This document shows, piece after piece, positions 4,601-51,404 of a stretch of 64,000 bases of DNA. Source of the DNA: Fidelibacterota bacterium (lineage in GTDB: Bacteria; Fidelibacterota; UBA2242; JAOZSR01); NCBI GenBank assembly GCA_029939575.1, contig JAOZSR010000006.1:4037-68036 (forward strand), read 5' to 3'. Made by a program: the position numbers and the translations under genes. Positions within the stretch are counted from its first letter, which is position 1. Each line of letters begins with the position of its first letter. The notes under the pieces are model-generated. The model was not told the origin of the DNA. It ran no database searches and saw only the letters and a list, made by a program, of their open reading frames with translations.

Positions 4601-4609
4601 TTGGAATCC

Positions 4610-5563
4610 CTATTTTTTTTTGCGGGATCTTGATCTGGAAGAACTTTTTGATTTTGAACTGACTGTTCGATTTGATGATTTGGAATTTGATGATCTTTTG
4701 GATTTATATGATGATCTTGATGAACTGGAGGAGGTTCTGCTGGTTGTAGACTCGATAATGGATGAGGAACCTGATTTGCTATTTCTATTTTTTTTGGAAC
4801 TACCGGAATAAGAGGGACTACTTGAAGACGATGAGGAGTTTGAATCAGGGATTATCAGTCTATCGATTTTGTTTTTCTCTTTTTTAGAGTCGCTGGTTTC
4901 AAGTATTAGTTCTCCGGATTTAATGTTTTTTGTAAAATCCGAAACATTTGGTTGGTTTTGAGGGATTGAATATTTTGAACTTGAGTTATAAAAATTATAA
5001 GTATCATCTTGTTTTAATACTTTTCCATTAGTTGAATTTGTATAAAAGCTGTTCGACATATCGGATGAAGTTGTACGGTTATTATTTGAATTTGCTAAAC
5101 CATTAGTTTGGTTTGAGTTGTGTCTTCTACCTTCTGGTAGCTCCGGTCTTGGGGATTGGTTTTTTGAACCGGAGGAAGAACTTCCATATGAGGCAAATCC
5201 GGAATTATAATATCCTGCAATGTAATAATCGTTATAATATCCGTTATAATAACCAAAAGGATTGCTATATCCATAATAGGAATAAGGAGAGTAATAATTG
5301 TTATAGCCATAAACTCCCCGGTAAAAATTTCTGTTAACTTGGTATCCAGGGTAATAATTATCAATACCATGAGAAAAATACATTGGGTCTGCAAAGGAAT
5401 AACAGCTATAGGGATTGTAATATTCTTCAAAATACGGTTCATCCACGATGTTGGGATTTGTTTCTTCACTGGTAATTGGCGGGTGTATAATTGTATAGCA
5501 TCCATGTAAAAGAAAGATTAACATGAAAAGTAAGATTGTATTAGATTTTATTTTATTTAGCAT
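4610..5563 (-). CDS. secreted low-complexity Tyr/Asn/Gly-rich protein with a Ser/Arg/Lys-rich C-terminal tail
   Basis: Signal peptide (MLNKIKSNTILLFMLIFLLHGC), a long tract of YY/GY/NY repeats (YYSPYSYYGYSNPFGYYNGYYNDYYIAGYYNSGF) and a tail ending ...SSSSSRSSYKSKRSSNSKSSNRTVSSKSKSSSRSRSRKKK. No known domain recognised. Confidence 0.5.
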   Translation of the reverse strand: MLNKIKSNTILLFMLIFLLHGCYTIIHPPITSEETNPNIVDEPYFEEYYNPYSCYSFADPMYFSHGIDNYYPGYQVNRNFYRGVYGYNNYYSPYSYYGYSNPFGYYNGYYNDYYIAGYYNSGFASYGSSSSGSKNQSPRPELPEGRRHNSNQTNGLANSNNNRTTSSDMSNSFYTNSTNGKVLKQDDTYNFYNSSSKYSIPQNQPNVSDFTKNIKSGELILETSDSKKEKNKIDRLIIPDSNSSSSSSSPSYSGSSKKNRNSKSGSSSIIESTTSRTSSSSSRSSYKSKRSSNSKSSNRTVSSKSKSSSRSRSRKKK

Positions 5564-5616
5564 AATGATGCCTCCATTTTCAATTTAATTTATTAAACAA
5601 TTAATATTTAAGCAAG

Positions 5617-5647
5617 TTTCATTCAATCCAATAAAAATTGAATGAAA
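5617..5647. promoter_or_regulatory. perfect 10-bp inverted repeat (TTTCATTCAA-N11-TTGAATGAAA) in the promoter region of the minus-strand 5563..2848 operon
   Basis: Seen directly in the sequence, about 54 bp upstream of the start of the low-complexity gene. Candidate operator. Confidence 0.3.
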
Positions 5648-6018
5648 TCTAAAATGATATTTATCACATTGGAAAAAGTGAGCATTCTATCGAAAAATTC
5701 ATAGGTTTTAAATTTAGCTTCAGTTTAGTCATTAAATATTATTAATATTCTAAGAGCCATAGTGTTTTATTGGTAGAAATTTGTGGATAATACCGGCTAA
5801 ATAAATCGGCAAAGGATGTTGTCTGCTAAACTCGTTCGGTTATTGCCATTGAAATTGGTCCAATATTTCATACCCTTATTCTGTAAATTAACAAAAAAGA
5901 TTATTTGTTTTAAGAGTGAATTTTTTGCTCTTCATTTTAGTTGATTTTTTAAAGACGTTAATGTAAATTTTTAAGCTCTTCAGAGTTAACCTGAAGATGA
6001 AAAGTAAGTTGAAAAAAT

Positions 6019-6240
6019 ATGTCGCAAATTGGAAAAACAGTAATAATTTATGGAGTGCTGGTAATAATACTAGGACTGCTGGTCAGTTATGGCAGCATGA
6101 TACCATTTATCAGCAAGTTAGGTCATTTGCCAGGAGATTTTGTGATTAAAAAGGGTGGTTTTTCCTTATATGTTCCTGTTACTACTTGCTTGATAATTAG
6201 TTTGATTATTCATTTGATATTAAATATAGTACGCCGTTAG
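6019..6240 (+). CDS. DUF2905-family small membrane protein
   Basis: 73 aa with two transmembrane segments and a central LPGDFVIKKGGFSLYVP motif typical of DUF2905. Confidence 0.55.
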   Translation: MSQIGKTVIIYGVLVIILGLLVSYGSMIPFISKLGHLPGDFVIKKGGFSLYVPVTTCLIISLIIHLILNIVRR

Positions 6241-6251
6241 GAGGTATTTTA

Positions 6252-9200
6252 GTGATTAAAAAGGTTCAGCCAAATGTTGACTTTATTAAACTTGAACATG
6301 ATATGCTAGACTTCTGGGAAGAGTCTGATATTTTTAAAAAATTAATTGAGAAAAATAAAGATAATCCAAAATGGTCATTTCAGGATGGCCCTATCACAGC
6401 TAATAATCCAATGGGTGTTCATCATGCCTGGGGACGGAGTTATAAAGATATTTTTCAGCGTTATAAGGCCATGAACGGATTCATAACTCGTTATCAAAAC
6501 GGTTTTGATTGCCAGGGACTTTGGGTGGAAGTAGAAGTTGAAAAACAACTGGGTTTTAAATCAAAAACCGACATTGAAGAATATGGCATAGAAAATTTTG
6601 TAAATAAATGTAAAGAGAGAGTAATAAAATATTCAAAAATACAAACCGAACAGTCCAAAAGGCTTGGGTATTGGATGGATTGGGATAATTCATATTATAC
6701 TATGTCAGAGGAAAATAATTATACAATCTGGCTATTTTTGAAAAAATGTAATGAAAAAGGCTGGATTTATAAAGGCCATGATGTTATGCCATGGTGTACC
6801 AGGTGTGGAGCTGCTCTGTCAGAACATGAAATCGCGACAGAAGGTTACAAAGAAATGACCCATACCAGTGTGACTGTTAAATTTCCATTAATTGATAAAA
6901 AGAATGAGTTCCTGCTTGTATGGACAACAACTCCCTGGACGCTTACATCAAATACTGCTGCTGCTGTACATCCTGAAAAAACATATTTAAAGATAAAACA
7001 GGGTGAAGAAATTTTTTACATAATTGAAGGCAGAGAAGAAATTATTAAAGGTGAATATTCTATCGTTGGGTCTTTAATCGGAAAAGAAATGCTCAATTGG
7101 AAATACAATGGCCCCTTTGATGAATTGCCTATTCAAAAAGATGTAAAACATAAAGTTATTTTCTGGGAAGATATTACTGAAACCGAAGGTACAGGAATAG
7201 TACATATTGCGCCCGGCTGTGGACAGGAAGATCATCAGTTAAGCAAAGAATTTGATTTGTCAGTTATTGCACCTTTAGATCAATTTGGTAATTACCTGGA
7301 AGGCTTTGATTGGCTTACAGGGATGAATGTCGATGACGTGCTTAAACCAATTTTGAAAATTTTAGAAGAAAAATCTATAAAATATAGTTATGATCCTTAT
7401 ACTCACCGTTATCCGATTTGCTGGCGTCATGGAACTCCACTTGTATTTCGTCTGGTTGATGAATGGTTTATCAGTATGGACGAAGTTCGTCAGGATATGA
7501 TGGAGGTAACAAAACAAATTCGCTGGATTCCGGAATACGGTCTAAGTCGTGAATTGGATTGGCTAAAAAATATGCATGACTGGATGATCTCCAAAAAAAG
7601 ATATTGGGGTTTAGCATTACCAATTTATGAATGCCAGGACTGTGGAAAAATTACTGTATTAGGTAGCCGTGAGGAATTAAAAGAAAGAGCCGTTGAAGGC
7701 TGGGAAGAATTCGAAGGAAATACTCCTCATCGCCCCTGGATTGATAAAGTCAAAATCCGTTGCGAGTGTGGTAGCCTGGTGAATAGAGTTGAGGATGTTG
7801 GAAATCCATGGCTGGATGCCGGAATTGTTCCCTATTCTACCCTGCATTATACAACAGATCATGATTATTGGAAAGAATGGTTTCCGGCTGAATTTATTTG
7901 CGAATCTTTACCCGGTCAATTCCGAAATTGGTTTTATTCATTGCTGGCCATGAGTACTGTACTTGAGAAAAAACCGCCATTTTTGACTATTCTTGGTCAT
8001 GCCCTGGTAAAAGATGAAAAAGGCGATGATATGCACAAAAGTGCCGGAAACGCCATTTGGTTTGAAGAAGCTGCAGAAAAAATGGGCGTTGATGTAATGC
8101 GTTGGTTATATGCTTCACATAATCCTTTTAATAACCTAAATTTTGGCTATCATGTTGCTTCAGATGTACGAAAGCGTTTGATAACACTTTGGAATTCCTA
8201 TTCATTTTTTGCAACTTATGCTGAACTTGATAATTATTCAAAAGATAAACATAAAGTAGAATATAAAGATCTTTCTGAACTTGATTTGTGGCTTTTAGCC
8301 AGGTTAAATTTATTAATAAAGAAAAGCAGATATGATTATGATAATTATTCTGTTGTCAGTGTAATGAAGCAACTTAATATTTTTCTGGAAGATCTTTCCA
8401 ACTGGTACATAAGAAGAAGCAGGCGTAGATTTTGGAAATCTGAAGATGATAACGATAAATGGGGTGCTTACCAGACACTTTATGAAGCATTAAAAGGGAT
8501 AATTTTAGTCATGGCTCCGGTAACTCCCTTTATAACTGAAGCAATTTATCAGAATCTTGTTAGAAATCTTGATCCTGAGGCGCCGGAAAGTATTCATTTG
8601 CATGAATTTCCAAAAGTTGATGAATCATTGATTGATGAGAAATTAATCAGGAACATTAATAGTGTAATTAAAATTGTCAGTATGGGCAGAGCTGCCAGAA
8701 ATAAGGTTAATCTTAAAGTGAGACAACCGTTACAAAAACTGCTGATCAAACTACCACCCGAGATATCTGCAAAGGATTTTGAAATTTTTTCTACTCAGAT
8801 TATTGAGGAATTAAATGTTAAAAAAATTGAGATTATTGAGGATGATAGTCATTTGGCAAGTTATGTAATTAAACCGAATTTTGCAGTATTGGGGAATAAA
8901 TATAAAAAACAAGTAGGCCTGATTAGAGCCCAAATCAGTAAATTGAATCCAGCAGAAGTTGCCCCAAAAATTGAAAAAGGTGGAACTGTTGAGATACAGG
9001 TTGCAGAAGAAAAAATATTTTTAACTGCTGAAGACATTCTGGTAGAACGAAAAGACAAAGACGGTTTTTCTACAACTTTTGATTCTGATTATTCTGTAGC
9101 AATTGATACAATATTAACAGAAGAGTTAAAACGGGAAGGACTGGTAAGGGATTTTATCAGGCAAATACAGACAATGAGAAAAGAGGCTGATTTTCAGGTT

Positions 9201-13152: not shown

Positions 13153-13434
13153 GGATTATAGCTTATAAATAAGGTTCAGAAATATAAACAGAATAAATTT
13201 TTTTAATTATCCTTTTGAAAATAAAATAAAATTTATTGTTTGTGAAAATTTCAATATAATAATTTATATTTTTTCCCAACTTTATAAGAATTTGGTTTTT
13301 TACAAATTATGTTGATATTATCTGTTTTAAATTTTATCTTATAACTTGTTATTAAGAATTTTGAAAATATAGATTACAAAGTTCGCAAGCAATGTCTTTT
13401 GAATCGAGAGATTACTGTTTAGTAATGAGGGCAA

Positions 13435-15129
13435 ATGAAATTTCGATTTATATTATTAATAATTATTATAGTATTAGGTGGTACTCTTAGTTGTGAATTT
13501 GAAAAGCCAACATCTTTACAATTACCTGCAAGATGGAATTCACGATTAATTATTCCTCTGTTTGATCAAACTTATGAATTAGCAGATCTGATTTCGGATT
13601 CATCAGATGCTGAACAGAATCCATTATTTGCTGATTCCACAGGTAATATTCATTTTACTTTACAGGATTCACATCAGGCAACTCTTAATTTCAGCACCTC
13701 TGAATGGAATTTACCAGCACACAGTTTGTCTGCTGATACAAACTTTGCTAATATTACTGTTGATACAAGTGGGAATGTCAGCCCAATTCAATTTATAATA
13801 GCTGAAAAAACAAATTTTTTAAAACCACAACTCATTTCCGGTAAAATTGATATGTCACCAGCAAATCGGATAAACTTCCAGGTAGAATTAAGTGACACTC
13901 TAAGTAATCCTATCCAATTAACTATTACTTGTGAAAATTTTAAAGACAGAATTAGTGACACTTTAGAAATAGTGGAAATTTTGTTACCTGTAGGAAGTGA
14001 TTCGACTAATTTTAATTTGAGTGTCAGAGCTGATTCTCTTGTTAATGATGGAATAACTTTATTGGATTCACTTACATTTTCGATACTTTTGAATATTAAT
14101 GATTCCCTGGCAACTCCCGTTGAAGAATTAACCCAGGAGTTATCAATATCAATAGAAGTTAGTCCACTCACTCTCACTTCTTTTTTCGGAACAAGTTATT
14201 TGTCTGAGAAAATATCCGCCCGTAAATTTGAAAAAATTCCTCTTCTTGAAAATGGTGTAGATTTCGATTCCACAGAGATTATTATGGTCTTTAATAATTC
14301 TTCTCACCCTGATATTAAAAACCAGATAATCAGTATTGTTGGAAGGAAAGATGGATTCACCGACGTCCGGAAAGATACTACAGTAAGTTTGCTTATTGAT
14401 ACATTAAAAATGGATATTTCTAAAATTCTATCCCGTTTGCCAGATAGTTTGACAGTATTTTCCATTCCGATTTTAGAGCAAAAAGAATATATCTCCGGGG
14501 GAATAAACAGTATAGGGATTGATGCAAAATATGAAATTAGTGCCCCATTATCCTTTATGTTTTTTGATGAAATAAATATAATATCCGGTAATCCCAATGA
14601 GATTTTTATCAAAGATTCTTTAACCAGATCAAATTTATGCAAATCTCAAAATGGAGTTGCTTTTGATATGGAAGTAGAAAACAGTATGCGATTACCCGGA
14701 TATATTTATCTTATTGCCGGTAATTTCCCGTTGGTAAAATTTGATTCAGCATATATTTCAAATCGGGTTGATTTTTACTGGAATCCCACAATGGATTCTT
14801 TGTTTCATGTTAGTGATGAAACAACTCTTGTCAAATTTGATACGCTTGCGGAAATCGAATTACCTAAGGGTGAATGGGAGGATGTTCAGTTAATAAATCC
14901 GGGATATTCTCAACAAATGTTTTATTCTGATTCCAGTGTTGTTTCGCTATTATTAGATACAATGTATATCATGCCTGCTTTTAAATTATCCAATCCGGAC
15001 TCCATTCCGTTTTCCATAAATACGAATGAATTTTTTAGAATTAAATCCTATTTGAATGTACTCTTTGATCCAAAGGCCTTAACACCGGAATCTCCGGATA
15101 CTTCGGATACAACTTTAATTACAGGATAA
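13435..15129 (+). CDS. large surface lipoprotein, paralog A1 of the duplicated module
   Basis: Lipoprotein signal peptide (…VLGGTLSC). No known domain recognised. Its C-terminal half is similar to that of the protein at 16574..18847. Confidence 0.5.
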   Translation: MKFRFILLIIIIVLGGTLSCEFEKPTSLQLPARWNSRLIIPLFDQTYELADLISDSSDAEQNPLFADSTGNIHFTLQDSHQATLNFSTSEWNLPAHSLSADTNFANITVDTSGNVSPIQFIIAEKTNFLKPQLISGKIDMSPANRINFQVELSDTLSNPIQLTITCENFKDRISDTLEIVEILLPVGSDSTNFNLSVRADSLVNDGITLLDSLTFSILLNINDSLATPVEELTQELSISIEVSPLTLTSFFGTSYLSEKISARKFEKIPLLENGVDFDSTEIIMVFNNSSHPDIKNQIISIVGRKDGFTDVRKDTTVSLLIDTLKMDISKILSRLPDSLTVFSIPILEQKEYISGGINSIGIDAKYEISAPLSFMFFDEINIISGNPNEIFIKDSLTRSNLCKSQNGVAFDMEVENSMRLPGYIYLIAGNFPLVKFDSAYISNRVDFYWNPTMDSLFHVSDETTLVKFDTLAEIELPKGEWEDVQLINPGYSQQMFYSDSSVVSLLLDTMYIMPAFKLSNPDSIPFSINTNEFFRIKSYLNVLFDPKALTPESPDTSDTTLITG

Positions 15130-15134
15130 ATGTA

Positions 15135-16550
15135 TTGAGATCAATTATAAAAAATTTAAGAAATTATTTAAAAGCCTTTTTAATATTTGGTTTTTTCACA
15201 ATTTCTTATCTGTTTTCTCAATCTATCTATTATCCCAGAGCAAAGGGGCTTGGAGGGGCATATTCTACCATTGCAAAAGGCTATAAATGTGCGGCTTATA
15301 ACCCGGCTGGTTTAGCTTTCCCCGGCGAATATAGGAATTATTATGAGATTGGCGGTTGGTCAAAATTCGCTACCAATAATTTTTATTCACTGGCAATTAA
15401 TGGAAAATATGGTGGTAAGGATTTAACAGCGAATAATGGTGAATTACAATCGGAATTTATTGATGATTTGCCTTTAAAAGGCTGGCAAATAAACTTTGGA
15501 CAAAATTTCCCCTTACCATTATTGAATTTTTCAATTGGAAACAAAGCCTTTACAACAAACCTGCTCTATATTGGTGATTATTATGTTGATCGGCCTACTC
15601 TTGATTTGGTTTTTGGAAATTTCCAAAAAGGGAAAAAATACGACATCAATTTGCGTCTTGAATCAATGATGGCCGCCGAATATGGATTTTCCATGGGAAT
15701 TCCATATAACAATCTCGCTCTGGGATTTACTTTAAAATATATCCAGGGGTTGGGGTATTATGGGGTTGACCCAAGCCGGAGTGGTGGGTATATCATAGCA
15801 GATACAACAAATTTTGTGCTCGACGGTAGCGGGGATTTATATTTTCGTACTTCAAACCTTGGACGAGGATTTAGTGCCGATTTTGGATTCATGACAAAGG
15901 ATGTTTTTGGTACAGATATTTCTATAGCTATTAAAAATATTGGTGCGAAAATAGAATGGAATAAACAAAATCTTACACCTGGAAAAATGGGTGAAAGAGC
16001 TTTGGAATTTATGGGAAATCAGTTTAAAACCTGGAATACAGATGTTCAGTTACCTATGAGTGGTGAAATATTTAAATACTCATTTCATATGGATAATGTA
16101 AATGATGCTGAACAAAATGGCTTTTTTCAGGGAGATAGCAGTTATAAAGATTATTTTACAAGCAGTTCTGAAATTATCGACAGCAGTATTGCATTTACTA
16201 CAAAATTGCCAATAATTATTCAAATAGGATTTGCCCGAAATTTTAGTGATGATTTGTTAATAGTAATGGATTTTACAACTTCCTTTGAGGATAAACTAAA
16301 CTATTGGAAAGGATGGCGATCAGCCCTTGGAGCAGAATATTCCTATTTTCCTAAATTTCCATTAAGAATGGGCATGGCAGTTGGAGGACTTTCCGATTGG
16401 GAAATTGACCTGGGGAGTGGATTTCAATTTGGACCGGTTCAATTGGATTGGGCGGTTGGATTTTATGACGGAATATGGCTACATACATTAAAGGGTTATA
16501 GTTTTTCAATTGGTGCCAGCTTTTCATCAGGTAAGTTTAAAAATAAATAA
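15135..16550 (+). CDS. FadL/OMPP1-like outer-membrane beta-barrel, paralog B1
   Basis: Signal peptide. The KGLGGAYSTIAKGYKCAAYNPAGLAF motif resembles the FadL hatch motif GLGRAYSG...NPA. Clear paralog of the protein at 18844..20178. Confidence 0.5.
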   Translation: MRSIIKNLRNYLKAFLIFGFFTISYLFSQSIYYPRAKGLGGAYSTIAKGYKCAAYNPAGLAFPGEYRNYYEIGGWSKFATNNFYSLAINGKYGGKDLTANNGELQSEFIDDLPLKGWQINFGQNFPLPLLNFSIGNKAFTTNLLYIGDYYVDRPTLDLVFGNFQKGKKYDINLRLESMMAAEYGFSMGIPYNNLALGFTLKYIQGLGYYGVDPSRSGGYIIADTTNFVLDGSGDLYFRTSNLGRGFSADFGFMTKDVFGTDISIAIKNIGAKIEWNKQNLTPGKMGERALEFMGNQFKTWNTDVQLPMSGEIFKYSFHMDNVNDAEQNGFFQGDSSYKDYFTSSSEIIDSSIAFTTKLPIIIQIGFARNFSDDLLIVMDFTTSFEDKLNYWKGWRSALGAEYSYFPKFPLRMGMAVGGLSDWEIDLGSGFQFGPVQLDWAVGFYDGIWLHTLKGYSFSIGASFSSGKFKNK

Positions 16551-16573
16551 TTAGAAATTGATAAAAAAAATTT

Positions 16574-18847
16574 ATGAAGAATTTAGGACAAAGGTTATAT
16601 AAATGGATATTTCCATATATTTTGATTATTTCTGTTTTTCTTATTGGCAATTGTACAATTGATCCCATTAAACCCCCAACTTTACCAACATTTTACCAGA
16701 CGATAAACATTCCATTGGCCAATACCAATTTGCCATTGGCAAATTTACAGGATTCGCTTAATCACATTTTTGGTGATTCTTTGGCGGATTCACTCTGGTT
16801 TTTCTTTGAGGGTAGTCTTGATACAACAACTTTAACTAAGGATATTTTTGTTGTTCCAACGGCAATGGATATTGCATTTTCCCAGGAGTTTTCCGAAATA
16901 AGCGGCTCGGATATTTCTTTTGACACTACATTTAGTAAAATCATGAAATTGTCAGATCATATCCATGTGCCGGGAGTTTCTTTGCCCTTTGGTTTTGATG
17001 TTACCCTGGATTCTCTACAAAGAGAGCCTTTGATCAATGAAAATCATAAGATCAAAATTTTTGACAAATACAGTGTGCCATATTTTAAAAGAGTAGACTA
17101 CCTGACAATAGGCTCCGGTACTTTTAGCACGGAAATTACAAATGAACTACTTGTGGATATAGATTCAGTAAATATTGAATTATATAATATTGATGGAGAA
17201 TCAATTTCTAAATTATTTTTTGATAAGATACCGGCAGGAGAAAGCAGGTCAAAAGGTGAGGAAGGAAACCTGGCTGGAAAAAAAATGAGTGATTCGGTAG
17301 CCATTCAAATTAGTGCGATTTTTGCCGGAACAGATGGAGAGCCTTTATTAATTCCAGCCGAAACAGATCCTTTTGTAGATGTTGCTGTCAGGTTTGCTGT
17401 AGATAGTGTAGAAAGTTTTACCGGTATTCCCGAGCCTATAGAACTTTCCCAGTCAATACCAATACCAAGTTCAAATAATACAATTATAAGAGGAATTTAT
17501 TCCGATGTTCTTAGCGATTCACCGGATACAAACCAGATAACATTTCAGGTTCAGAATGATATGCAGGTAAATATTGATTTAGATATATCATTTTTGAATT
17601 TTTACGGTTCAAGCGGTATGTTGAATATTCATAACACATATTTTGCAGGTACTAGCGGTAGTGATATTTTACGCCTGGACAATGATACTTTAAGAAATTC
17701 TGATGCCAGTACTATTGTTGATTCAATAATTGTTCAGACTTTTGTAAACCTGGTTCCTGATGTTGGAGATACAGTGACTACAATACCCCTTTCTTCTCTC
17801 GATCAGAGTTTGGATATTAATATTAATGTGGCAATAATGCAATTTTCAGAAATTGTGGGATTTTTTAATGAATCTTTTGCAATTCCGCCGATAACAATTG
17901 AAGACATTCCCACTGGTTTTAGTGGCATTGATTTTGGAAATGTGTTCCTTAATTTGAAATTAAATAGTGAAATCCAGGCAAGTACTGATCTTAATCTTGA
18001 GATCGGTGGTTATCGCACTGGTTATGAGCCCGAAATTATTGAAATTATCCAAACAATTAATAAAGCCAGCGATACGAATCCGGTTGCAGAATCATCAGTA
18101 TCAATAGATATCGCTCCTGTATTCAACCTTATGCCGGATTCAATTATGGTAGATGGTGATGCATCGATACCTGCAAATGATACATCAAAATTACAAGTTG
18201 GAAAATCCTTTTGGGGGAATTATGAAATTACTGTACCTTTTAAATTAAAACTGGATCCACTTACTTTTATTCCTGTAAGTTCTACCACCTTTAATCCAAT
18301 CAGCAGCCAAATTGCTGAAAAACTTCGCTCCGGATTTATTGAAGCAAAAGTTATTAGTAAAGTAGAAAATAATTTTCCACTGGCCTGTATAATCGAGATT
18401 TTAATTTCAGATTTTGATTATTTTCCTATGGATAGCAGTACAGCTGATTCCGGGTATAATTGGATTGGAGATTCATTATTTGCAGATACTGATACCGGTC
18501 TGATACATATAAAAATTGACACTCTGGTTAGTATTGAATTGCCAAAACCCAATGAATTTAATCAGGATGGAAGTGTGAAAATTCCGTCAATATTGAATCA
18601 GCATAGCAATTTGGATTCTTTAACCTTTGAATCAATTTTAGAAGACAAAGTGCATTATATCAGGCCGAGAGTTTATTTAATTGGTACAGAAGATTATGTG
18701 ACAGTTAAACTCAGCGATGAAATAAAAATTCTTACTTTAATAAGTGTCACCATGGAAGCCGGAAAGTTTATTGGCCTTGACAATGACGAGTCTTCCGATA
18801 CTCTTGAAATTGATAATTTATCCAGAATAACCACAAATGGACATTGA
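16574..18847 (+). CDS. large surface lipoprotein, paralog A2
   Basis: Lipobox (…FLIGNC). Shares C-terminal blocks with A1 (NNFPL…, DTLxxIELPKxxE…). Confidence 0.5.
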   Translation: MKNLGQRLYKWIFPYILIISVFLIGNCTIDPIKPPTLPTFYQTINIPLANTNLPLANLQDSLNHIFGDSLADSLWFFFEGSLDTTTLTKDIFVVPTAMDIAFSQEFSEISGSDISFDTTFSKIMKLSDHIHVPGVSLPFGFDVTLDSLQREPLINENHKIKIFDKYSVPYFKRVDYLTIGSGTFSTEITNELLVDIDSVNIELYNIDGESISKLFFDKIPAGESRSKGEEGNLAGKKMSDSVAIQISAIFAGTDGEPLLIPAETDPFVDVAVRFAVDSVESFTGIPEPIELSQSIPIPSSNNTIIRGIYSDVLSDSPDTNQITFQVQNDMQVNIDLDISFLNFYGSSGMLNIHNTYFAGTSGSDILRLDNDTLRNSDASTIVDSIIVQTFVNLVPDVGDTVTTIPLSSLDQSLDININVAIMQFSEIVGFFNESFAIPPITIEDIPTGFSGIDFGNVFLNLKLNSEIQASTDLNLEIGGYRTGYEPEIIEIIQTINKASDTNPVAESSVSIDIAPVFNLMPDSIMVDGDASIPANDTSKLQVGKSFWGNYEITVPFKLKLDPLTFIPVSSTTFNPISSQIAEKLRSGFIEAKVISKVENNFPLACIIEILISDFDYFPMDSSTADSGYNWIGDSLFADTDTGLIHIKIDTLVSIELPKPNEFNQDGSVKIPSILNQHSNLDSLTFESILEDKVHYIRPRVYLIGTEDYVTVKLSDEIKILTLISVTMEAGKFIGLDNDESSDTLEIDNLSRITTNGH

Positions 18848-20178
18848 TCTTGATTAAATTTTTCCAATTTGTAATATTAATGACAGTTATATCTGTTGGA
18901 ATAAATGCGCAGACTCGTCGTGATCCCCGTGGAATGGCCTTGGCCGGGGCTTATGGATTGATGTCGCGTGGATATTTTTGTATAGATTATAATCCGGCAA
19001 ATCTGGCTATCCATGATCGTTATAAAAGTTATCGCTCTTTGGGCGGTTTGAATTTTGGATTTTCCAATAATTTTTTATCTTTATCTGAATATCAGAAATA
19101 TAACGGGAAAAATTTTGAAGCCGATAATGGGAAATTAAAAAACGAGTTTTTAACCAATTTGCCTAAAAATGGATGGCGGATTTTTTCAGATTTTCACTTT
19201 TCGCTTCCTCTGATTAATTATTCTTCAGTTAATAAAGCAATAACTTCAGATATAATTGTGATTGGAGATTTGGGATTGCCCAGAGGATTGATTTATTTTC
19301 TTTTTGATGGAAATCCATTAGATCGGGAATTGGATTTAGATTTTTCAGAAGAAACCCTGGCTATTGCACAGTGGGCATATTCTTTTGCGATTCCGGTTAA
19401 AAACTTTAATGTGGGTTTATCTCTGAAATATCTAATGGGAGGAGCATTTTTTGGTCTTGATCCGGATTCATCTTATGGCTCAATAACAACCAGTTTTGAA
19501 AGTGGGATAAATGGGAATGGCCATTATTTATTTGAGCAGAAAATTGGTGGACATGGTTTTGGAATTGATATCGGAGTTAATACTGAAAAAATTAATGGAT
19601 TCCGATTTGGCGTTTCAATAACCAACTTATTTGCAAATATAAATTTTGGCAAAGAAACGGTTATCACCAGAATGATTGATGCAGAAAAGATTCTTCCGTG
19701 GGATGGTAAGTTTTACCAGGTGGATTTTGAAATTGATAGCGCTAGTTTTGAAAAGTTTTTTGCCGGTGCCGGTTATGATGAGATCTTTAAAAGTGAGAAT
19801 ACAACAATAGAAAATCATAATAATATGAGTATCCGCTATCCATCTTTGGTACGATTTAGTGTTTCGAAAGATATTCAGGAAGAATCAGTATTAGCAATAG
19901 ATTTTGTGGCAGGCTTTGAAGATCGCTTATTTTCTTTTGGATCATGGAAATTCTGTGCCGGAGTCGAGACAACTCATTTTCCTCATACGCCATTACGGAT
20001 TGGAGTTGCATTTGGAGGAAAGGATCATCGATCTTTAAATTTCGGAAGCGGCTATCATCGTGGTTTTTTTCATTTTGATTGGGCTTTGGGATTCACTCAT
20101 TCTATATTTATCAAAAGTTCCAAAGGGTTGGAGTTTTCTGTAAATTTATTTACAACAAGATTGTGGAAAATAAAATAG
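18844..20178 (+). CDS. FadL/OMPP1-like outer-membrane beta-barrel, paralog B2
   Basis: Signal peptide. RGMALAGAYGLMSRGYFCIDYNPANLA motif. Collinear similarity to B1 (…NNGELQSEF/…DNGKLKNEF; LPLKGWQINF/LPKNGWRIFS). Confidence 0.5.
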   Translation: MILIKFFQFVILMTVISVGINAQTRRDPRGMALAGAYGLMSRGYFCIDYNPANLAIHDRYKSYRSLGGLNFGFSNNFLSLSEYQKYNGKNFEADNGKLKNEFLTNLPKNGWRIFSDFHFSLPLINYSSVNKAITSDIIVIGDLGLPRGLIYFLFDGNPLDRELDLDFSEETLAIAQWAYSFAIPVKNFNVGLSLKYLMGGAFFGLDPDSSYGSITTSFESGINGNGHYLFEQKIGGHGFGIDIGVNTEKINGFRFGVSITNLFANINFGKETVITRMIDAEKILPWDGKFYQVDFEIDSASFEKFFAGAGYDEIFKSENTTIENHNNMSIRYPSLVRFSVSKDIQEESVLAIDFVAGFEDRLFSFGSWKFCAGVETTHFPHTPLRIGVAFGGKDHRSLNFGSGYHRGFFHFDWALGFTHSIFIKSSKGLEFSVNLFTTRLWKIK

Positions 20179-20332
20179 CCTGAAATATTCATTACCACAA
20201 GGACATGAAAATATTCAGATAAAAAAATAAAGTCAACAAAACTATTAATCAAAATTTGTTTTTATGCCCGATTATTTTAAAAGGTTTTATTTTTGGAGTG
20301 ACGACATAGCAGTAATTTGTGAATAATTAAGA

Positions 20333-20959
20333 TTAAAATAGGTTAATTTCCATTCCAAATTTAACTGTTGACCATTGGATTGTGCTTTGAAATGGAGCAT
20401 TGTCACCCGGATACATTTCAACGGCTCTGAATGAGCAATACACAGAAAATAGGTTCATCAGGTTGATCCCTGTTTTATAACGCGCTGCAAATCCCATACT
20501 TGTGAAAGATTCCTTTTCATCTTGCAAATGGATCCCAAAATCCAATCCTCCATCCATTATAATAAATTTTGGCAAACGCCATATTCGCGCCAGGTCTAAT
20601 TCTGAATAGACAAAAATAGGAGTACCTACCAGATCTTTTAATTTTTCTTTGGCTTTAAATGTATAATGACCCGATTCAACTCCCAGATTCATCACGAAAT
20701 TATCATTATTAAAAATATTATTAATACCCAGGTAATATGAAACCGAGGAGCCGTTATTCCAAAAATGTTTCATATTATAACTGATAGCAGGAATAAATCC
20801 CGTATCAATACCGAGTGTTAATTTTTTAATTTTTACCTGTTTTTCAACAATTTTTAAGGAAGTTATAGCATCTTCCGGCAGACCAGTATTTATTTGAGCC
20901 TGGGTGTAATTAATGAAAAACAGCATAATTATTATAGAAAGGGGGAAATGTTTTTTCAT
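20333..20959 (-). CDS. small outer-membrane beta-barrel protein (OmpW/OmpA-membrane-like), putative
   Basis: Signal peptide MKKHFPLSIIIMLFFINYTQAQ. 208 aa with alternating aromatic and hydrophilic strands and a C-terminal aromatic residue. Confidence 0.35.
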   Translation of the reverse strand: MKKHFPLSIIIMLFFINYTQAQINTGLPEDAITSLKIVEKQVKIKKLTLGIDTGFIPAISYNMKHFWNNGSSVSYYLGINNIFNNDNFVMNLGVESGHYTFKAKEKLKDLVGTPIFVYSELDLARIWRLPKFIIMDGGLDFGIHLQDEKESFTSMGFAARYKTGINLMNLFSVYCSFRAVEMYPGDNAPFQSTIQWSTVKFGMEINLF

Positions 20960-21246: not shown

Positions 21247-21597
21247 ATGAAAAATAGCAAAAATGATATTTCTTTCGATAAATGGGATATTGTTCTCGTC
21301 ACTTTTCCTATGCCCGGCCAGATGAAAAAAAGACCGGCACTTATTATTTCCCCGGCTTCCTATAATCAAAATAATGACATTGTAATTGTAAATATTACAA
21401 GTAATCTTTCTGTTAATAAATTGTATGGAGATTATATGATTTGGGAATGGCAAAAAGCAAAATTACCTAAGCCTTCAATGATTAGAATGAATTTTGCTAC
21501 TGTTAATAGACGAAGGTTGGAACCTTTTGGAAAATTGAACGAAAAAGATGTTGAGGAATTTGGGAAGAACCTTAAACATTTTTTTAATTTAGATTAA
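21247..21597 (+). CDS. PemK/MazF-like type II toxin (copy 1)
   Basis: DKWDIVLVTFP…KKRPALIISP…VIVNITSN… matches the Kid/PemK/MazF fold pattern (GDIv.v.fp...krPalVls....N...vivvpiTs). Confidence 0.6.
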   Translation: MKNSKNDISFDKWDIVLVTFPMPGQMKKRPALIISPASYNQNNDIVIVNITSNLSVNKLYGDYMIWEWQKAKLPKPSMIRMNFATVNRRRLEPFGKLNEKDVEEFGKNLKHFFNLD

Positions 21598-21615
21598 AAA
21601 ATATTGGAGGATGGA

Positions 21616-21858
21616 ATGGGAGTAATGAGTATAAGACTTGATGACCAGAAGAAAAAATCTTTGAAAGTTATTGCATCAATAGAAGGTAAAACCATCGGAG
21701 GGTTAGTCGGTGAATTAATTGATGGATATATTGAAAAGAATAAAATTAAAATCAATAATATTGTCAAAAGTGATCATTTAGAGGATATAATCAAAATTTC
21801 AGAAGCATCATTTTTAGAATGGGATAATGAAGAAGATGAAATCTATAACGAATTATAA
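21616..21858 (+). CDS. ribbon-helix-helix (CopG/MazE-like) antitoxin
   Basis: MSIRLDDQKKKSLKVIASIEGKTIGGLVGELIDGYI forms a beta-strand plus two helices in the RHH pattern, followed by an acidic C-terminal tail (EWDNEEDEIYNEL). GGAGG lies 6 nt upstream; the track ORF begins at 21604. Its end overlaps the start of the second toxin. Confidence 0.55.
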   Translation: MGVMSIRLDDQKKKSLKVIASIEGKTIGGLVGELIDGYIEKNKIKINNIVKSDHLEDIIKISEASFLEWDNEEDEIYNEL

Positions 21859-22156
21859 AAAATGGGACATTGTTCTTGTAAATTTTCCATTTACAAAAAA
21901 TAATAGTCAAAGCAAAAGACCTGCTTTGATCATTTCACCTCAGGAATATAACCAGGCTGGGCAGGTAGTAATTTTATTTATTACCAGTAATATTAAAAAT
22001 GGCGGAGGAATTTCCATTAAGGAATGGAAAGAAGCCGGGTTGGCTAAACCCGCGATTATAAAGATGAAATTTGCTACAATTAATTTAGCAATAATACTTA
22101 AAAAATTAGGCAGACTTACCGATAATGATATTAATGAAATACAGCGAATACTGTAG
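21827..22156 (+). CDS. PemK/MazF-like type II toxin (copy 2)
   Basis: KKWDIVLVNFPF…SKRPALIISP…VVILFITSN… is a paralog of copy 1. Confidence 0.6.
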   Translation: MKKMKSITNYKKWDIVLVNFPFTKNNSQSKRPALIISPQEYNQAGQVVILFITSNIKNGGGISIKEWKEAGLAKPAIIKMKFATINLAIILKKLGRLTDNDINEIQRIL

Positions 22157-22201: not shown

Positions 22202-25200
22202 ATGAAGGCATATAACATTAAAAAAAACATAGTGTTATTTTTAATTTTATTTTTAATATCATTTGCAAACGGGCAATATGGAAAAAATAAAGTTTGCTAT
22301 GACGAATTTGACTGGAATTATATTCAAACAGAGCATCTGGATATATTTTTTTATGAAGGTGGTGAAGAGTTAGCAAAGTTTGCAGCACCAATTGCGGAAA
22401 GACAATTTAAACGGATTCAGAATGTTTTAAAATGGGAAGTAAATAAGCGAACAGCCTTATTGATTTACAATTCTCATAATGATTTTCAGCAGACTAATGT
22501 TACTTTGAGTTATATGACAGAGGGAATAGGTGGGTTTACAGAACTTTTTAAAAATAGAGCGGTAGTTGCTTTTGAGGGAGATTATCATGGCTTTTGGCAT
22601 GTAATAAAACATGAATTGGTACATGTTGTTGTAAATGATATGGTTTATGGTGGTAATATTCAAAGTGTTATTTCAGGGCGAGTGCAATTAAACATACCTT
22701 TATGGATGAATGAAGGTTTGGCTGAATATTTGTCATGGAATTGGGATACACATGCCGACCTTATGCTTCGTGATATAGCCATGAGCAATAATATTCCTGA
22801 TATCAAATATTTGGATTATTATATGGCATATAAAGGTGGTCAATCTGTTTACCAGTTTATTTCGCAGAAATATGGTGAAGAAAAAATTGGAGAAATATGG
22901 CGCACTATAAAAAGTAAAAAAAATGTTGATAAAGGTTTTGAAGCATGTATTGGTATGGATACTGAGGAATTATCAGAAGAATGGCATAAATGGCTAAGAC
23001 GTGAATATTGGCCGGAAGTTGCTGATAGGGATGAACTGGAAAGTATTGCCATTCGTATTACCGACCATAAAAAATTAAAAAATCATTTTAATACTGCTCC
23101 GGCTATTTCTCCAAACGGAGAAAAAATTGCATTTATTTCCGATAGGAATGGATATGCAGATATTTATCTTGCTTCAGCCCGAGATGGTGAAATTTTAAAA
23201 AGAGTTGTTCGTGGTCAAAAATCTCCTGATTTGGAAGAGATAAAATGGCTAAATCCAAGATTAAGTTGGTCTCCGGATGGGAAAGAACTTGTATTAGCGA
23301 CAAAAAGTGGAAATACAGATGCACTCATAATGGTTAATGTGGAAACAGGAGATATAAAGAAAAAAACATTTGATAATTTAGAAGAAATTTTTTCTGCAGC
23401 CTGGTCACCAGAGGGAGATAAAATAGCATTTATCGGATTGAAACAATATTATACAGATGTTTATTGTTATCATATTAAAGAAGATCGATTGGAACAATTT
23501 ACTGATGATATTTTTTCGGATTTTGAGCCTTCATGGTCACCTGACGGGTCAAAAATAATTTTTTCTTCTCAAAGAGGATGTGATGGTGAAATTAAAAAAT
23601 TTAAATTATCAAAAGATATTTCTAGGATTAACTATCATCAAAAGGATTTGTTTATTTTAGATTCAGAGTCAAAAGAAATCCATAGGGTAACAAATAGTCC
23701 TTACGAAGAAGATAGCCCGATCTGGATGAAACAAAAAAACGAAATATTATTTTGCTCTGATGAAAGCGGGATCACAAATTTTTATACATTAAACTTAGAA
23801 ACTAATAAACTTACAGCATTGTCAAATGTCCTTACTGGCGCATTTCAACCATCAATGAACTATGATGATACAAGGCTGGTTTTTGCCGGGTACTCAGATC
23901 AGGGATGGGATATTTATTCAATCAGTAATCCGATGGGTAGAAGCAGTGATTCTTTGATTATTGCCCCTACGGGATTTGTTTCCAAGCGGCCAAAAGTATG
24001 GGAACAGTGGGCAGAAAAAGGAGAATTAGAAATCAAGAAAGATGAAAAATTTTCTGTTACACGGAAAATTGAAGAGGAAAAATCCTATTCAAATTATATT
24101 TTTGCACCTGGATATGATGAATGGAAAGAGTCCAATGAAAGTCCCTATGATTCGGAAAAAGATTTAGTTGAAAAATTGGATTCTGTTAATTATCAAACAA
24201 AAGAGGGCGAATTTGTTGTAAATGAATATAAAACCAAGTTGTCTCTTGATTTGGTCGATAATCGGGCCGGATATAGTACTTTTTGGGGTTTTCAGGGAAC
24301 GACTGTTTTTTCTTTTAGTGATGTTTTAGGTAATCATCGTATTTTGTTTGGAACTGAAATGTATCTTGATTTGGAAAATAGTGACTATTATCTCAGTTAT
24401 CAATATTTAACAAATAAAACTAATATTTATTTTTCAGCTTTTCACTCTGCTAATTTTTATTCTTCTGGATATTATTCCATGTGGCGGTTAAGAAATTATG
24501 GAGCAAGTACATCATTTTCGCGACCTTTATCCAAATTTACAAGGCTGGAATATGGTTTAACTCTGTACAATGTTGAGCAAAATTTAATTGATATTTTAAC
24601 TAGTCAAACTCTTCAAGAGACCAAAATTCACACAATTTTGCCACAGGCTTCCTGGGTTTTTGATAACACTCTTTGGGCATATTTTTATCCTATTGATGGC
24701 TGGCGAGCCAGAGCTGATCTTACTGGTAGTCCAAGGTATAATAAAAACAGTCTGGAATTTGTATCATTAAATCTAGATTTTCGTCGCTATTTTAAACTAA
24801 ACAGGGAATATTCCTTTGCTTTACGTTTCAGTGGTGGAATAAGTGAAGGTAAGAATGCTCAGCGTTTTTTCCTGGGTGGAGAAACAAATTGGATAAATCA
24901 AAAATTTAAACATTATCATAATTTTAGTAATGCAGAAGATATTTATTTTTCTCGGTTTATAACCCCTTTGCGAGGAGCCAGGTATTATGAAAGAGAAGGA
25001 ACAAGGTATTTTCTGACTAACTTTGAATTCCGTTATCCCTTTATAAAATATCTCCAGTTGGGTTGGCCAATTCCACTTATAACCGGTGGAATTCAAGGAG
25101 TTACTTTCCTTGATATTGGTTCAGCCTGGCATGATAGTAATTTTCATCCTTTTACCAGAACAGCCGGTAATGATTTAATTATGGATGACCTGGTTGGAGG

Positions 25201-25324
25201 ATATGGATTCGGAACCAGACTATTTTTTGGATATTTTTTATTAAAAATAGATATTGCCTGGAGATTTGATCTGCATACAATACATGATCCGCAATATTAT
25301 TTTTCACTGGGTATGGATTTCTAG
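22202..25324 (+). CDS. three-module outer-membrane protein: N-terminal HExxH domain, TolB-like PD40 beta-propeller, C-terminal Omp85/BamA-type beta-barrel
   Basis: Signal peptide. HELVHVV motif in the N-terminal domain. PD40 repeats (ISPNGEKIAFISDRNG…, WSPDGKELVLAT…, AWSPEGDKIAFIG, SWSPDGSKIIFSS). C-terminal surface-antigen barrel (…GGIQGVTFLDIGSAW…GYGFGTRLFFGYFLLKIDIAWRFD). Confidence 0.6.
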   Translation: MKAYNIKKNIVLFLILFLISFANGQYGKNKVCYDEFDWNYIQTEHLDIFFYEGGEELAKFAAPIAERQFKRIQNVLKWEVNKRTALLIYNSHNDFQQTNVTLSYMTEGIGGFTELFKNRAVVAFEGDYHGFWHVIKHELVHVVVNDMVYGGNIQSVISGRVQLNIPLWMNEGLAEYLSWNWDTHADLMLRDIAMSNNIPDIKYLDYYMAYKGGQSVYQFISQKYGEEKIGEIWRTIKSKKNVDKGFEACIGMDTEELSEEWHKWLRREYWPEVADRDELESIAIRITDHKKLKNHFNTAPAISPNGEKIAFISDRNGYADIYLASARDGEILKRVVRGQKSPDLEEIKWLNPRLSWSPDGKELVLATKSGNTDALIMVNVETGDIKKKTFDNLEEIFSAAWSPEGDKIAFIGLKQYYTDVYCYHIKEDRLEQFTDDIFSDFEPSWSPDGSKIIFSSQRGCDGEIKKFKLSKDISRINYHQKDLFILDSESKEIHRVTNSPYEEDSPIWMKQKNEILFCSDESGITNFYTLNLETNKLTALSNVLTGAFQPSMNYDDTRLVFAGYSDQGWDIYSISNPMGRSSDSLIIAPTGFVSKRPKVWEQWAEKGELEIKKDEKFSVTRKIEEEKSYSNYIFAPGYDEWKESNESPYDSEKDLVEKLDSVNYQTKEGEFVVNEYKTKLSLDLVDNRAGYSTFWGFQGTTVFSFSDVLGNHRILFGTEMYLDLENSDYYLSYQYLTNKTNIYFSAFHSANFYSSGYYSMWRLRNYGASTSFSRPLSKFTRLEYGLTLYNVEQNLIDILTSQTLQETKIHTILPQASWVFDNTLWAYFYPIDGWRARADLTGSPRYNKNSLEFVSLNLDFRRYFKLNREYSFALRFSGGISEGKNAQRFFLGGETNWINQKFKHYHNFSNAEDIYFSRFITPLRGARYYEREGTRYFLTNFEFRYPFIKYLQLGWPIPLITGGIQGVTFLDIGSAWHDSNFHPFTRTAGNDLIMDDLVGGYGFGTRLFFGYFLLKIDIAWRFDLHTIHDPQYYFSLGMDF

Positions 25325-49557: not shown

Positions 49558-49558
49558 A

Positions 49559-51403: not shown

Positions 51404-51404
51404 T

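Follow-up and report, generated by a model that had tools for sequence, protein, structure and literature searches.

How bacteria of the FCB group assemble a cell surface rich in lipoproteins has yet to be explained, and BAM structures published in 2025 revealed that a FadL-fold barrel can dock surface lipoproteins. The window analysed here, a 64,000-nucleotide (64-kb) stretch of DNA, carries two consecutive pairs of a lipoprotein gene and a barrel gene, LipA-BarA and LipB-BarB. Are these pairs substrate-specific importers or constitutive components of the envelope? The duplicated pair is found in Marinimicrobia, which rank among the most abundant of the uncultured groups in the dark ocean.

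A first-pass annotation of this DNA had described four co-directional, tightly packed genes directly downstream of hpf and hprK. All four open reading frames were confirmed on the plus strand, with gaps of 5 nt between LipA and BarA and 23 nt between BarA and LipB (Table 1), and both hpf (Ribosomal_S30AE) and hprK were found directly upstream of the module. The 4-nt overlap described for LipB and BarB depends on the TTG codon at 18844 being the start of BarB; in public gene calls BarB starts two codons later and encodes 442 aa, which turns the overlap into a 2-nt gap. In relatives, an NTP-transferase gene, metK and ahcY occupy the position between hprK and LipA. A promoter and terminator scan of the locus gave results no better than those for shuffled sequence.

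Table 1 Features of the duplicated lipoprotein-barrel module, in positions of the window.
Feature	Position	Strand	Remarks
AT-rich intergenic region 5' of the module	13153..13434	+	282 nt, hprK stop to LipA start; promoter presumed
LipA, predicted lipoprotein	13435..15129	+	564 aa, ATG start
LipA Cys20 and N-terminal family motif (C-EFEKPTSLQLPARWNSRLIIPLFDQTY)	13492..13569	+	lipid-anchor Cys
LipA part equivalent to the LipB DUF4621-like module	~14242-14844	+	
BarA, FadL-fold outer-membrane barrel, PorV/DUF5723-like	15135..16550	+	471 aa, TTG start
BarA hatch motif G38-A61 (GLGGAYS...YNPAGLA)	15246..15317	+	aligns to hatch of TbuX/TodX and PorV
LipB, predicted lipoprotein, full-length Lip-family member	16574..18847	+	757 aa, ATG start
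LipB Cys27 and N-terminal motif (C-TIDPIKPPTLPTFYQTINIPLANTNLPLANL)	16652..16747	+	invariant residues in 22 orthologs
LipB DUF4621-like module, approximate	17921..18523	+	residues ~450-650
BarB, barrel paralogous to BarA	18844..20178	+	444 aa, TTG start; alternative start 18850
BarB hatch motif A32-A55 (ALAGAYG...YNPANLA)	18937..19008	+	

A lipobox of the PROSITE PS51257 type consists of a hydrophobic h-region followed by [AGS] at position -1 and Cys at +1. Lipoboxes had been assigned to both lipoproteins, and for LipA this assignment stands, its GTLS/C site (VLGGTLS/C) being of the standard form. LipB is atypical in having Asn at -1 (LIGN/C), yet Cys27 is retained in every one of 22 orthologs, whose consensus reads LSC. 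P35, P38, N45, P47 and L48 of LipB are likewise invariant in this set, and [FY]YQT[IL]N[LI]PL is one of the two stretches with the highest conservation. Altogether 36 LipB orthologs were found at 42-53% identity, and all taxon-named ones belong to Marinimicrobia.

The C-terminal blocks reported to be common to both lipoproteins were recovered as an alignment of LipA 139-478 with LipB 315-658 (26% identity over 365 aa, E 3e-10). A family HMM covers residues 2-744 of LipB and residues 4-115 and 133-561 of LipA, which is a short member of the Lip family without profile positions ~112-281. Pfam and NCBIfam searches up to E = 1 gave no significant match on either protein, in line with the earlier statement that they lack a recognisable known domain; the sole match in this range was a sub-threshold hit of Rtt106_N on LipA (E 0.035). 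The predicted structure of LipB is all-beta and multi-domain (pLDDT 84.2), and a Foldseek search of the PDB retrieved nothing specific beyond 4h3w, a DUF4621 (PF15414) structure of the Parabacteroides distasonis protein BDI_1231 from structural genomics. DUF4621 has no direct Pfam match on LipA or LipB, and as proteins of this family comprise ~330 aa, they span no more than a portion of a Lip protein.

Beyond this locus, the Lip family comprises at least 489 clusters (251 with E<=1e-10), with lengths of 560-1000 aa, and thus far exists without a Pfam or NCBIfam model. Conservation in the family is highest at the Cys together with the N-terminal motif C..PxW...x(I/V)PL...Y..EL, even where the protein bodies no longer align by BLAST. 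Of 128 near-full-length representatives of the family, 98 carry the motif, and the A3/A4 consensus has it too. A hydrophobic stretch precedes the Cys in 93 of the 98 motif-bearing members, and only 28 of the 98 carry at least two acidic residues among the six that follow the Cys. Some family members have Gln at -1, which, like the Asn of LipB, does not make a canonical lipobox.

BarA and BarB are clear paralogs, as had been noted, with 32% identity in an alignment of 434 aa (E 7e-78). They adopt the FadL fold with 14 strands and an N-terminal hatch, for which PorV and BamG score nearly as high as FadL itself. The hatch-type motifs singled out previously are present in both, and G41, G49 and N56-P57-A58 of BarA are invariant among 25 relatives. 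The extracellular loop L1 (BarA residues ~82-118) is a further conserved part of the barrel. The description of the barrels as FadL-like therefore holds for the fold, the hatch and the NPA motif; it does not extend to sequence affinity, which places them nearest to PorV/PorQ and DUF5723 rather than to the FadL transporters. Toluene_X/FadL (PF03349) scores 15.9 bits on BarA against a gathering score of 29.7 and has no match on BarB. The PorV/PorQ model NF033709 of NCBIfam, with a cut-off of 90 bits, reaches 28 bits on BarA, 34-39 bits on relatives, and does not match BarB. DUF5723 (PF18990, gathering score 26.8) scores 24.9 bits on BarB and has no match on BarA, and precomputed PF18990 matches exist on 40+ orthologs; the majority of the Marinimicrobia orthologs have this domain. 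A broad barrel profile searched against PDB sequences retrieved PorV (E 2e-5) and TodX (~4e-3), and neither FadL nor BamG. PorV-like instead of FadL-like barrels had been named in the first-pass annotation as an outcome that would count against its own proposal, and the sequence affinity goes in this direction.

Related loci were collected by a genome scan with the LipB alignment as query and by a metagenome scan with P0166 as query. Twenty-six Marinimicrobia species representatives retain the gene order LipA-BarA-LipB-BarB. In each of the 25 loci from related species that continue beyond LipB, BarB comes after it, and BarA precedes LipB in 23 of 24, an adjacency far beyond chance. Caldithrix/KSB1-like contigs carry a single pair at the same locus, in the order metK-ahcY-lip-bar followed by convergent lptG-lptF, and the core locus of Marinimicrobia reads xerC-hpf-hprK-...-metK-ahcY-[pairs], again followed by convergent lptG. 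The genes lptFG are absent from the window; in relatives they are convergent to the pairs and not co-transcribed with them. Pairing is kept even in the very divergent lineages L010, L012 and L042, with start/stop overlaps of 4-20 nt, and a type III R-M system was found inserted between the two pairs, never inside a pair. Conservation of adjacency in relatives, which had been put forward as a check, is thus strict and includes other phyla: the pairing of a Lip lipoprotein with a PorV/DUF5723-type barrel is obligatory, and at least three phyla keep the pair at a single syntenic housekeeping locus. No catabolic, regulatory or TonB/ABC partner genes are attached to the locus in the related loci compared. 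The order kept in 26 Marinimicrobia, together with the single pair at the same Caldithrix/KSB1-like locus, points to an ancient, vertically inherited envelope unit and not to a nutrient-specific locus.

Lipoprotein and barrel were duplicated together, as had been supposed. Bit scores of pair A are lower in both parts (LipA 73 vs LipB 541-568; BarA 206-211 vs BarB 414-418). Judged from these scores, the rates of the partners covary, pair A being the faster-evolving in both components. Pair B is closer to the L012 outgroup, again in both components; in comparison with the Caldithrix-like pair, LipB is nearer than LipA and the barrels give mixed scores.

The combination of a FadL-type barrel and a lipoprotein partner of its own had been regarded as an uncharacterised arrangement. 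This is outdated, because BamG-BamH of the Bacteroidota BAM complex (PDB 9N2D, 9HJ3, 9HJM) is exactly such an arrangement, a FadL-fold barrel and a dedicated surface lipoprotein encoded adjacently, with BamG2-BamH2 as a paralog operon (PMC12611786, PMC12578637). BamH wedges its conserved lipidated N-tail into BamG, and complexes of a surface lipoprotein with a barrel have been called a hallmark of the FCB outer membrane (PMC12578637). The conserved Cys and N-terminal motif of the Lip family parallel this N-tail. Overall, the pair resembles the docking pairs BamH-BamG and PorU/PorZ-PorV/PorQ more than a nutrient importer.

In the reading that we prefer, each pair would encode a two-protein outer-membrane complex. 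The 14-stranded FadL-fold barrel of the PorV/DUF5723 branch would serve as the membrane-embedded dock and, as in BamG-BamH or PorV-PorU/PorQ-PorZ, act as an anchor. The lipoprotein would be held via the conserved segment right after its lipidated Cys (C..PxW...IPL...Y..EL), and its multi-jelly-roll body, including the DUF4621-like module, would probably project from the cell surface. Physical binding of the lipoprotein to the barrel is suggested by the genetics of the pair; surface exposure of the lipoprotein and an envelope or housekeeping role are likewise what we infer. The pair may be an ancient, vertically inherited, constitutive component common to Marinimicrobia, Calditrichota and KSB1, which presumably underwent tandem duplication in an ancestor of this Marinimicrobia clade. 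Taken as a whole, the proposal of a barrel that docks a lipoprotein as a constitutive envelope component, rather than as a substrate-specific importer, is one on which our confidence is evenly balanced. Should the pair turn out to be only a structural surface complex, the outcome would be a useful annotation and no surprise.

The function originally proposed was that of a FadL-type passive channel for hydrophobic substrates, with a surface lipoprotein that captures and delivers them and a duplication that provides two specificities. The barrels do have the invariant hatch Gly and NPA residues, and since they lack an N-terminal extension blocking the lateral opening, which may thus be free, a FadL-like channel function is possible; the strong divergence of the two pairs is also what different ligands would lead one to expect. 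However, the hatch motif is common to PorV, TodX/TbuX, BamG and these barrels, including the non-transporters PorV and BamG, and is therefore no indicator of transport. FadL, TodX and TbuX channels (PF03349; PDB 1T16, 3BRZ, 3BRY) have the same fold and hatch, but the module barrels stay below the threshold of their family and, as described above, the broad barrel profile retrieves no FadL. Classical FadL channels are not known to have a dedicated lipoprotein partner. On the lipoprotein side, lipid-binding folds had been suggested as something to look for, and the top structural matches of LipB include no lipocalin-, START- or other lipid-binding-like fold.

The module had also been likened to SusC-SusD, and in both systems a barrel has a surface lipoprotein of its own, the two genes lie side by side, and duplication has multiplied the pair. 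In contrast, SusC is a 22-stranded TonB-dependent transporter and SusD an alpha-helical TPR-like protein, where the present pairs combine a FadL-type barrel with an all-beta lipoprotein; here the lipoprotein gene comes first and there is no PUL context. TonB_dep_Rec and SusD have no Pfam matches on the module proteins. For a universal, syntenic core locus beside metK/ahcY and lptFG, devoid of catabolic genes, a constitutive role in the envelope is a better fit than nutrient capture of the SusCD kind, and we consider uptake unlikely.

A closer variant of the docking model would make the pairs the Marinimicrobia and Calditrichota counterparts of BamH-BamG, that is, BamA-bound accessory subunits forming an extracellular canopy for the assembly of outer-membrane and surface proteins. 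The bamH gene lies next to bamG in the majority of non-Bacteroidia FCB genomes, among them that of Caldithrix abyssi (Cabys_4206/4207), and BamG/H also occur as paralog pairs (BT_1785/86, Fjoh_1685/86). BamG/H have been reported in six of seven other FCB phyla, Marinimicrobia not being among the species of Supplementary Table 1. Core-genome status and the lptFG neighbourhood would suit a role in outer-membrane biogenesis, and the lipoprotein N-terminus is conserved, as it is in BamH. Orthology was nevertheless rejected by Pfam, NCBIfam, hhalign and tblastn alike, with the F. johnsoniae proteins as reference, their sequences coming from SEQRES entries of a published hybrid model. NF053685 (BamG), NF053686 (BamH) and Pfam DUF4270 are strong on the F. 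johnsoniae proteins (FjBamG 461 bits with NF053685) and match none of LipA, LipB, BarA, BarB or the Caldithrix-like pair; NF053685 also has no match on a third barrel of the window or on the barrels of relatives. The hhalign probabilities against BamG/BamH were below 2% (1.8% for the BamG comparison).

The proteins differ in build as well. The N-terminal tail of BamG is extended by ~10 residues and threads the lateral opening (PMC12578637). BarA and BarB lack this defining extension, with ~8-9 residues between predicted signal cleavage site and hatch compared to 25 in FjBamG; a longer N-tail belongs to a different barrel in the window (3299-4600). The Lip lipoproteins are larger than BamH and have a different fold set, and BamH is absent among their structural matches. 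That the pairs are BamH-BamG counterparts is thus distinctly improbable, and Lip constitutes a second lipoprotein family that is sequence-unrelated to BamH. The sole tblastn match of BamH in the window, at 51480-52013 (E 0.002), is spurious and lies inside a TPR/SH3 protein encoded in a Bat operon.

A bolder version, which we regard as speculative and would not expect to hold, is that the Lip/DUF5723-barrel pair represents an unrecognised, phylum-spanning outer-membrane core machine of Marinimicrobia, Calditrichota, KSB1 and relatives. Non-homologous to BamH, it would do an equivalent job, or offer a route that places lipoproteins on the surface via the lateral opening of the barrel, and would replace BamGH beside the LPS exporter genes. 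The module provides a concrete test here: is the BamGH assigned to non-Bacteroidota FCB phyla in fact a Lip-barrel pair?

It is very unlikely that the barrels are PorV/PorQ-type parts of a type IX secretion or attachment system, with the lipoproteins as anchored partners or cargo. At the sequence level, every barrel of the clade matches PorV/PorQ best, and in L012 the genes after the pair include one with a PorZ_N propeller match and one with a GWxTD domain. That propeller match is only faint, however, and the barrel scores are far under the PorV family cut-off. The partners of PorV/PorQ in the T9SS attachment complex are PorU/PorZ (PDB 6H3I), whereas those of the module have lipoprotein signal peptides, and a Pfam search of 67 Lip-family members detected no T9SS C-terminal domain. 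No T9SS gene lies within the window, and a literature search on T9SS in Marinimicrobia found nothing. That the genes are merely neighbours, with functionally independent lipoproteins and barrels, can practically be dismissed given an adjacency, order and overlap conserved across 26 species and across phyla, co-duplicated components with covarying rates, and an R-M insertion that respects the pair boundaries.

A literature search for functional studies of DUF5723 and DUF4621 found none, and the module provides a first context for both. DUF5723 comprises uncharacterised barrels of Bacteroidota and Spirochaetota, and BarA and BarB lie at or below its gathering score. In the UniProt accession list, a P. 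gingivalis DUF5723 protein adjoins a T9SS surface protein.

The four genes of the module are tightly packed on the plus strand, with gaps of 5 nt and 23 nt and, given a TTG start of BarB at 18844, a 4-nt overlap; public gene calls start BarB two codons downstream, and the overlap depends on the TTG choice. As described in the first-pass annotation, hpf and hprK lie directly 5' of the module, and the two barrels are paralogs (32% identity over 434 aa, E 7e-78). LipA and LipB share 26% identity over 365 aa (E 3e-10). Both barrels carry the hatch motif (G-x-G...NPA), of which G41, G49 and N56-P57-A58 are invariant among 25 relatives. A lipobox had been assigned to both lipoproteins; that of LipA is standard, whereas LipB has an atypical Asn at -1, although the Cys is invariant in 22 orthologs (consensus LSC). 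The two lipoproteins were said to lack a recognizable known domain, and neither shows a significant match in Pfam or NCBIfam, the sole match up to E = 1 being a sub-threshold Rtt106_N on LipA. The observation itself is thus confirmed, while its interpretation is supported in part.

Coordinates of the module and of further features in the window (locus coordinates for the restriction-modification insertion)
Feature	Coordinates	Strand	Description
LipA	13435-15129	+	564 aa
BarA	15135-16550	+	471 aa
LipB	16574-18847	+	757 aa
BarB	18844-20178	+	444 aa
Lipoprotein of third pair	4610-5563	-	317 aa; LLHG/C lipobox (cleavage at the slash); Tyr/Ser-rich low-complexity body
Barrel of third pair	3299-4600	-	433 aa; FadL-like; Toluene_X 19.7 bits, full-length alignment
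208-aa protein	20333-20959	-	signal peptide; no family match; convergent with BarB
Two PemK-family toxin genes	21247-22156	+	116 aa and 109 aa; small 84-aa ORF between
Protease-propeller-barrel fusion	22202-25324	+	1040 aa; Peptidase_MA_2 domain and PD40/Tricorn-type beta-propellers
Bat/aerotolerance-type operon	46792-52172	+	two VWA proteins, TPR, BatD, TPR-SH3
Type III restriction-modification insertion (related loci L001-L003)	3420-8004 (L001/L002)		methylase and Res helicase

All taxon-named homologs belong to Marinimicrobia (Neomarinimicrobiota; one record labelled 'Fidelibacterota'). The order LipA-BarA-LipB-BarB recurs in 26 species-representative Marinimicrobia loci, and the adjacency of lipoprotein and barrel is kept, with BarB 3' of LipB in 25/25 loci reaching that far and BarA 5' of LipB in 23 of 24. 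In one Marinimicrobia lineage, a type III restriction-modification system sits exactly between pairs A and B, leaving each pair intact. More distant lineages hold a single pair in which start and stop codons overlap (695 aa + 463 aa in locus L010, 971 aa + 482 aa in L012); their lipoproteins show similarity in the N-terminal motif alone or weakly in other parts. At L012 (5195-8011), the genes after the pair encode a 545-aa protein that matches the PorZ_N beta-propeller faintly and a GWxTD-domain protein.

Caldithrix/KSB1-like contigs have one pair in the order metK-ahcY-lip-bar, then convergent lptG-lptF, and most Marinimicrobia show the same flanks (xerC-hpf-hprK-...-metK-ahcY, the four genes, then lptG). 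Shared flanks and pair across these lineages indicate that the pair is an old core locus, passed on by vertical descent, and that it underwent tandem duplication in Marinimicrobia. The window lacks metK, ahcY and lptG at these positions: no NTP-transferase, metK or ahcY lies between hprK and LipA (13153-13434), and no convergent lptG follows BarB (20179-20332). As more than 20 related genomes (L004 and L016-L041 compared) keep all four genes in place, the surroundings of a conserved module have been locally rearranged here. Of the two pairs, A evolves faster in lipoprotein and barrel alike, and both components of pair B are nearer to the L012 outgroup; compared with the Caldithrix-like pair, the pair B lipoprotein is nearer and barrel scores are mixed. 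Lipoprotein and barrel co-evolve.

The LipB profile, run as an exhaustive HMM search, retrieved 489 clusters (50% identity), of which 251 reach E<=1e-10. Lengths cluster near 560, 690 and 970 aa, and the members with a name are from Marinimicrobia, candidate division KSB1 and Caldithrix. Most full-length members (98/128 near-full-length representatives) begin, in this order, with a signal peptide, the Cys and C..PxW...x(I/V)PL...Y..EL. None of 67 members checked has a Pfam match; the broad family profile matches PDB 4h3w (E 4e-4), a member of Pfam DUF4621, for which our literature search found no functional study. A single family HMM spans LipB end to end and covers LipA except for profile positions ~112-281, and LipA, having no counterpart to these, is a shortened member. 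The LipB model is all-beta (pLDDT 84.2), and its pTM of 0.54 may reflect uncertain relative domain placement. In a subgroup of the ~690-aa members (P0154, P0164, P0208, P0240 and others), the N-terminus is long and basic, and Gln occupies -1 (LVQ or LTQ before the conserved Cys); since this is not a canonical lipobox, these proteins may be anchored differently.

Assignment of the barrels to the FadL type was right as to fold. Structural comparison gave 25.7 for FadL, 25.3 for its P. aeruginosa homologue, 25.1 for both PorV and TodX and 21.9-22.7 for BamG subunits of three Bacteroidota BAM complexes, with the next fold class below 17. Because PorV and BamG come so close to FadL and TodX, the fold fails to tell transporters from docking barrels. 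The barrels also miss every curated sequence threshold: Toluene_X (15.9 bits, cut-off 29.7), DUF5723 (24.9 for BarB, cut-off 26.8) and PorV_fam (28, cut-off 90). A precomputed match to DUF5723 exists for most orthologs. Searched against the PDB, a broad clade barrel profile found PorV (E 2e-5) and TodX/TbuX (about 4e-3) and retrieved neither FadL nor BamG. The hatch motif aligns as well to PorV as to TbuX, and BamG has it too; it is therefore a superfamily feature and no evidence for transport.

The pairing of a barrel on a FadL scaffold with its own lipoprotein partner had been considered uncharacterized, but two 2025 papers already describe this arrangement in BamG and BamH of the Bacteroidota BAM complex (PMC12611786, PMC12578637). 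The N-tail of BamG, a FadL-fold barrel, is extended and passes through the lateral opening; BamH is a lipoprotein on the cell surface, and its conserved, lipidated N-terminus wedges into BamG (PMC12611786, PMC12578637). In B. thetaiotaomicron, BamG2-BamH2 make up a putative operon, and the listed BamG and BamH have adjacent locus tags in Chitinophaga, Ignavibacterium, Salinibacter, Fibrobacter, Gemmatimonas and Caldithrix; Marinimicrobia are absent from the species listed (PMC12611786, PMC12578637). When the F. johnsoniae proteins of the deposited model were taken as references, FjBamH fell into DUF4270/NF053686 and FjBamG into NF053685. Neither these family models nor hhalign detected LipA, LipB, BarA, BarB or the Caldithrix-like counterparts, BamH is missing from the LipB structural match lists, and neither BarA nor BarB has the N-terminal extension of BamG. 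The module resembles BamGH and PorV/PorQ complexes in genetic logic and fold and is not a demonstrable member of either family; that the pairs are BAM accessory subunits seems improbable.

The best-supported reading is a docking pair, to which we give an even chance. We infer binding, surface exposure and role alike: the barrel would be the membrane anchor, the conserved N-terminal segment of the lipoprotein the docking element, and its multi-jelly-roll body would be displayed outside, in a constitutive, envelope-related role. Uptake through a FadL-type channel with a capture lipoprotein, as first proposed, is compatible with the intact hatch motif and the short N-tail of the barrels, but finds no contextual support and is unlikely. 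A T9SS link, suggested by weak similarity to the PorV family and by a single neighbouring gene faintly resembling PorZ, is very improbable.

The pairs belong among the surface-lipoprotein/FadL-fold-barrel complexes of the FCB group, a concept known since BamGH. Undescribed so far are the unannotated, widespread Lip family, its strict pairing, the cross-phylum synteny beside lptFG and the Marinimicrobia duplication; Caldithrix and Fidelibacter are cultured relatives in which these can be tested directly.

The window holds a third lipoprotein-then-barrel pair (3299-5563, minus strand). Its barrel has an N-tail of ~18 residues before the hatch motif versus ~9 in BarA and BarB, and is the best, though weak, tblastn match to F. 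johnsoniae BamG in the window, with no match to the NCBIfam BamG model. A weak BamH tblastn match is spurious, as it falls in the Bat/aerotolerance-type operon. The 208-aa protein is probably a small outer-membrane barrel. The PemK-family genes lie between the module and the 1040-aa gene, whose product shows a weak BamA-like barrel match in its C-terminal region (residues 815-982), an unusual fusion.
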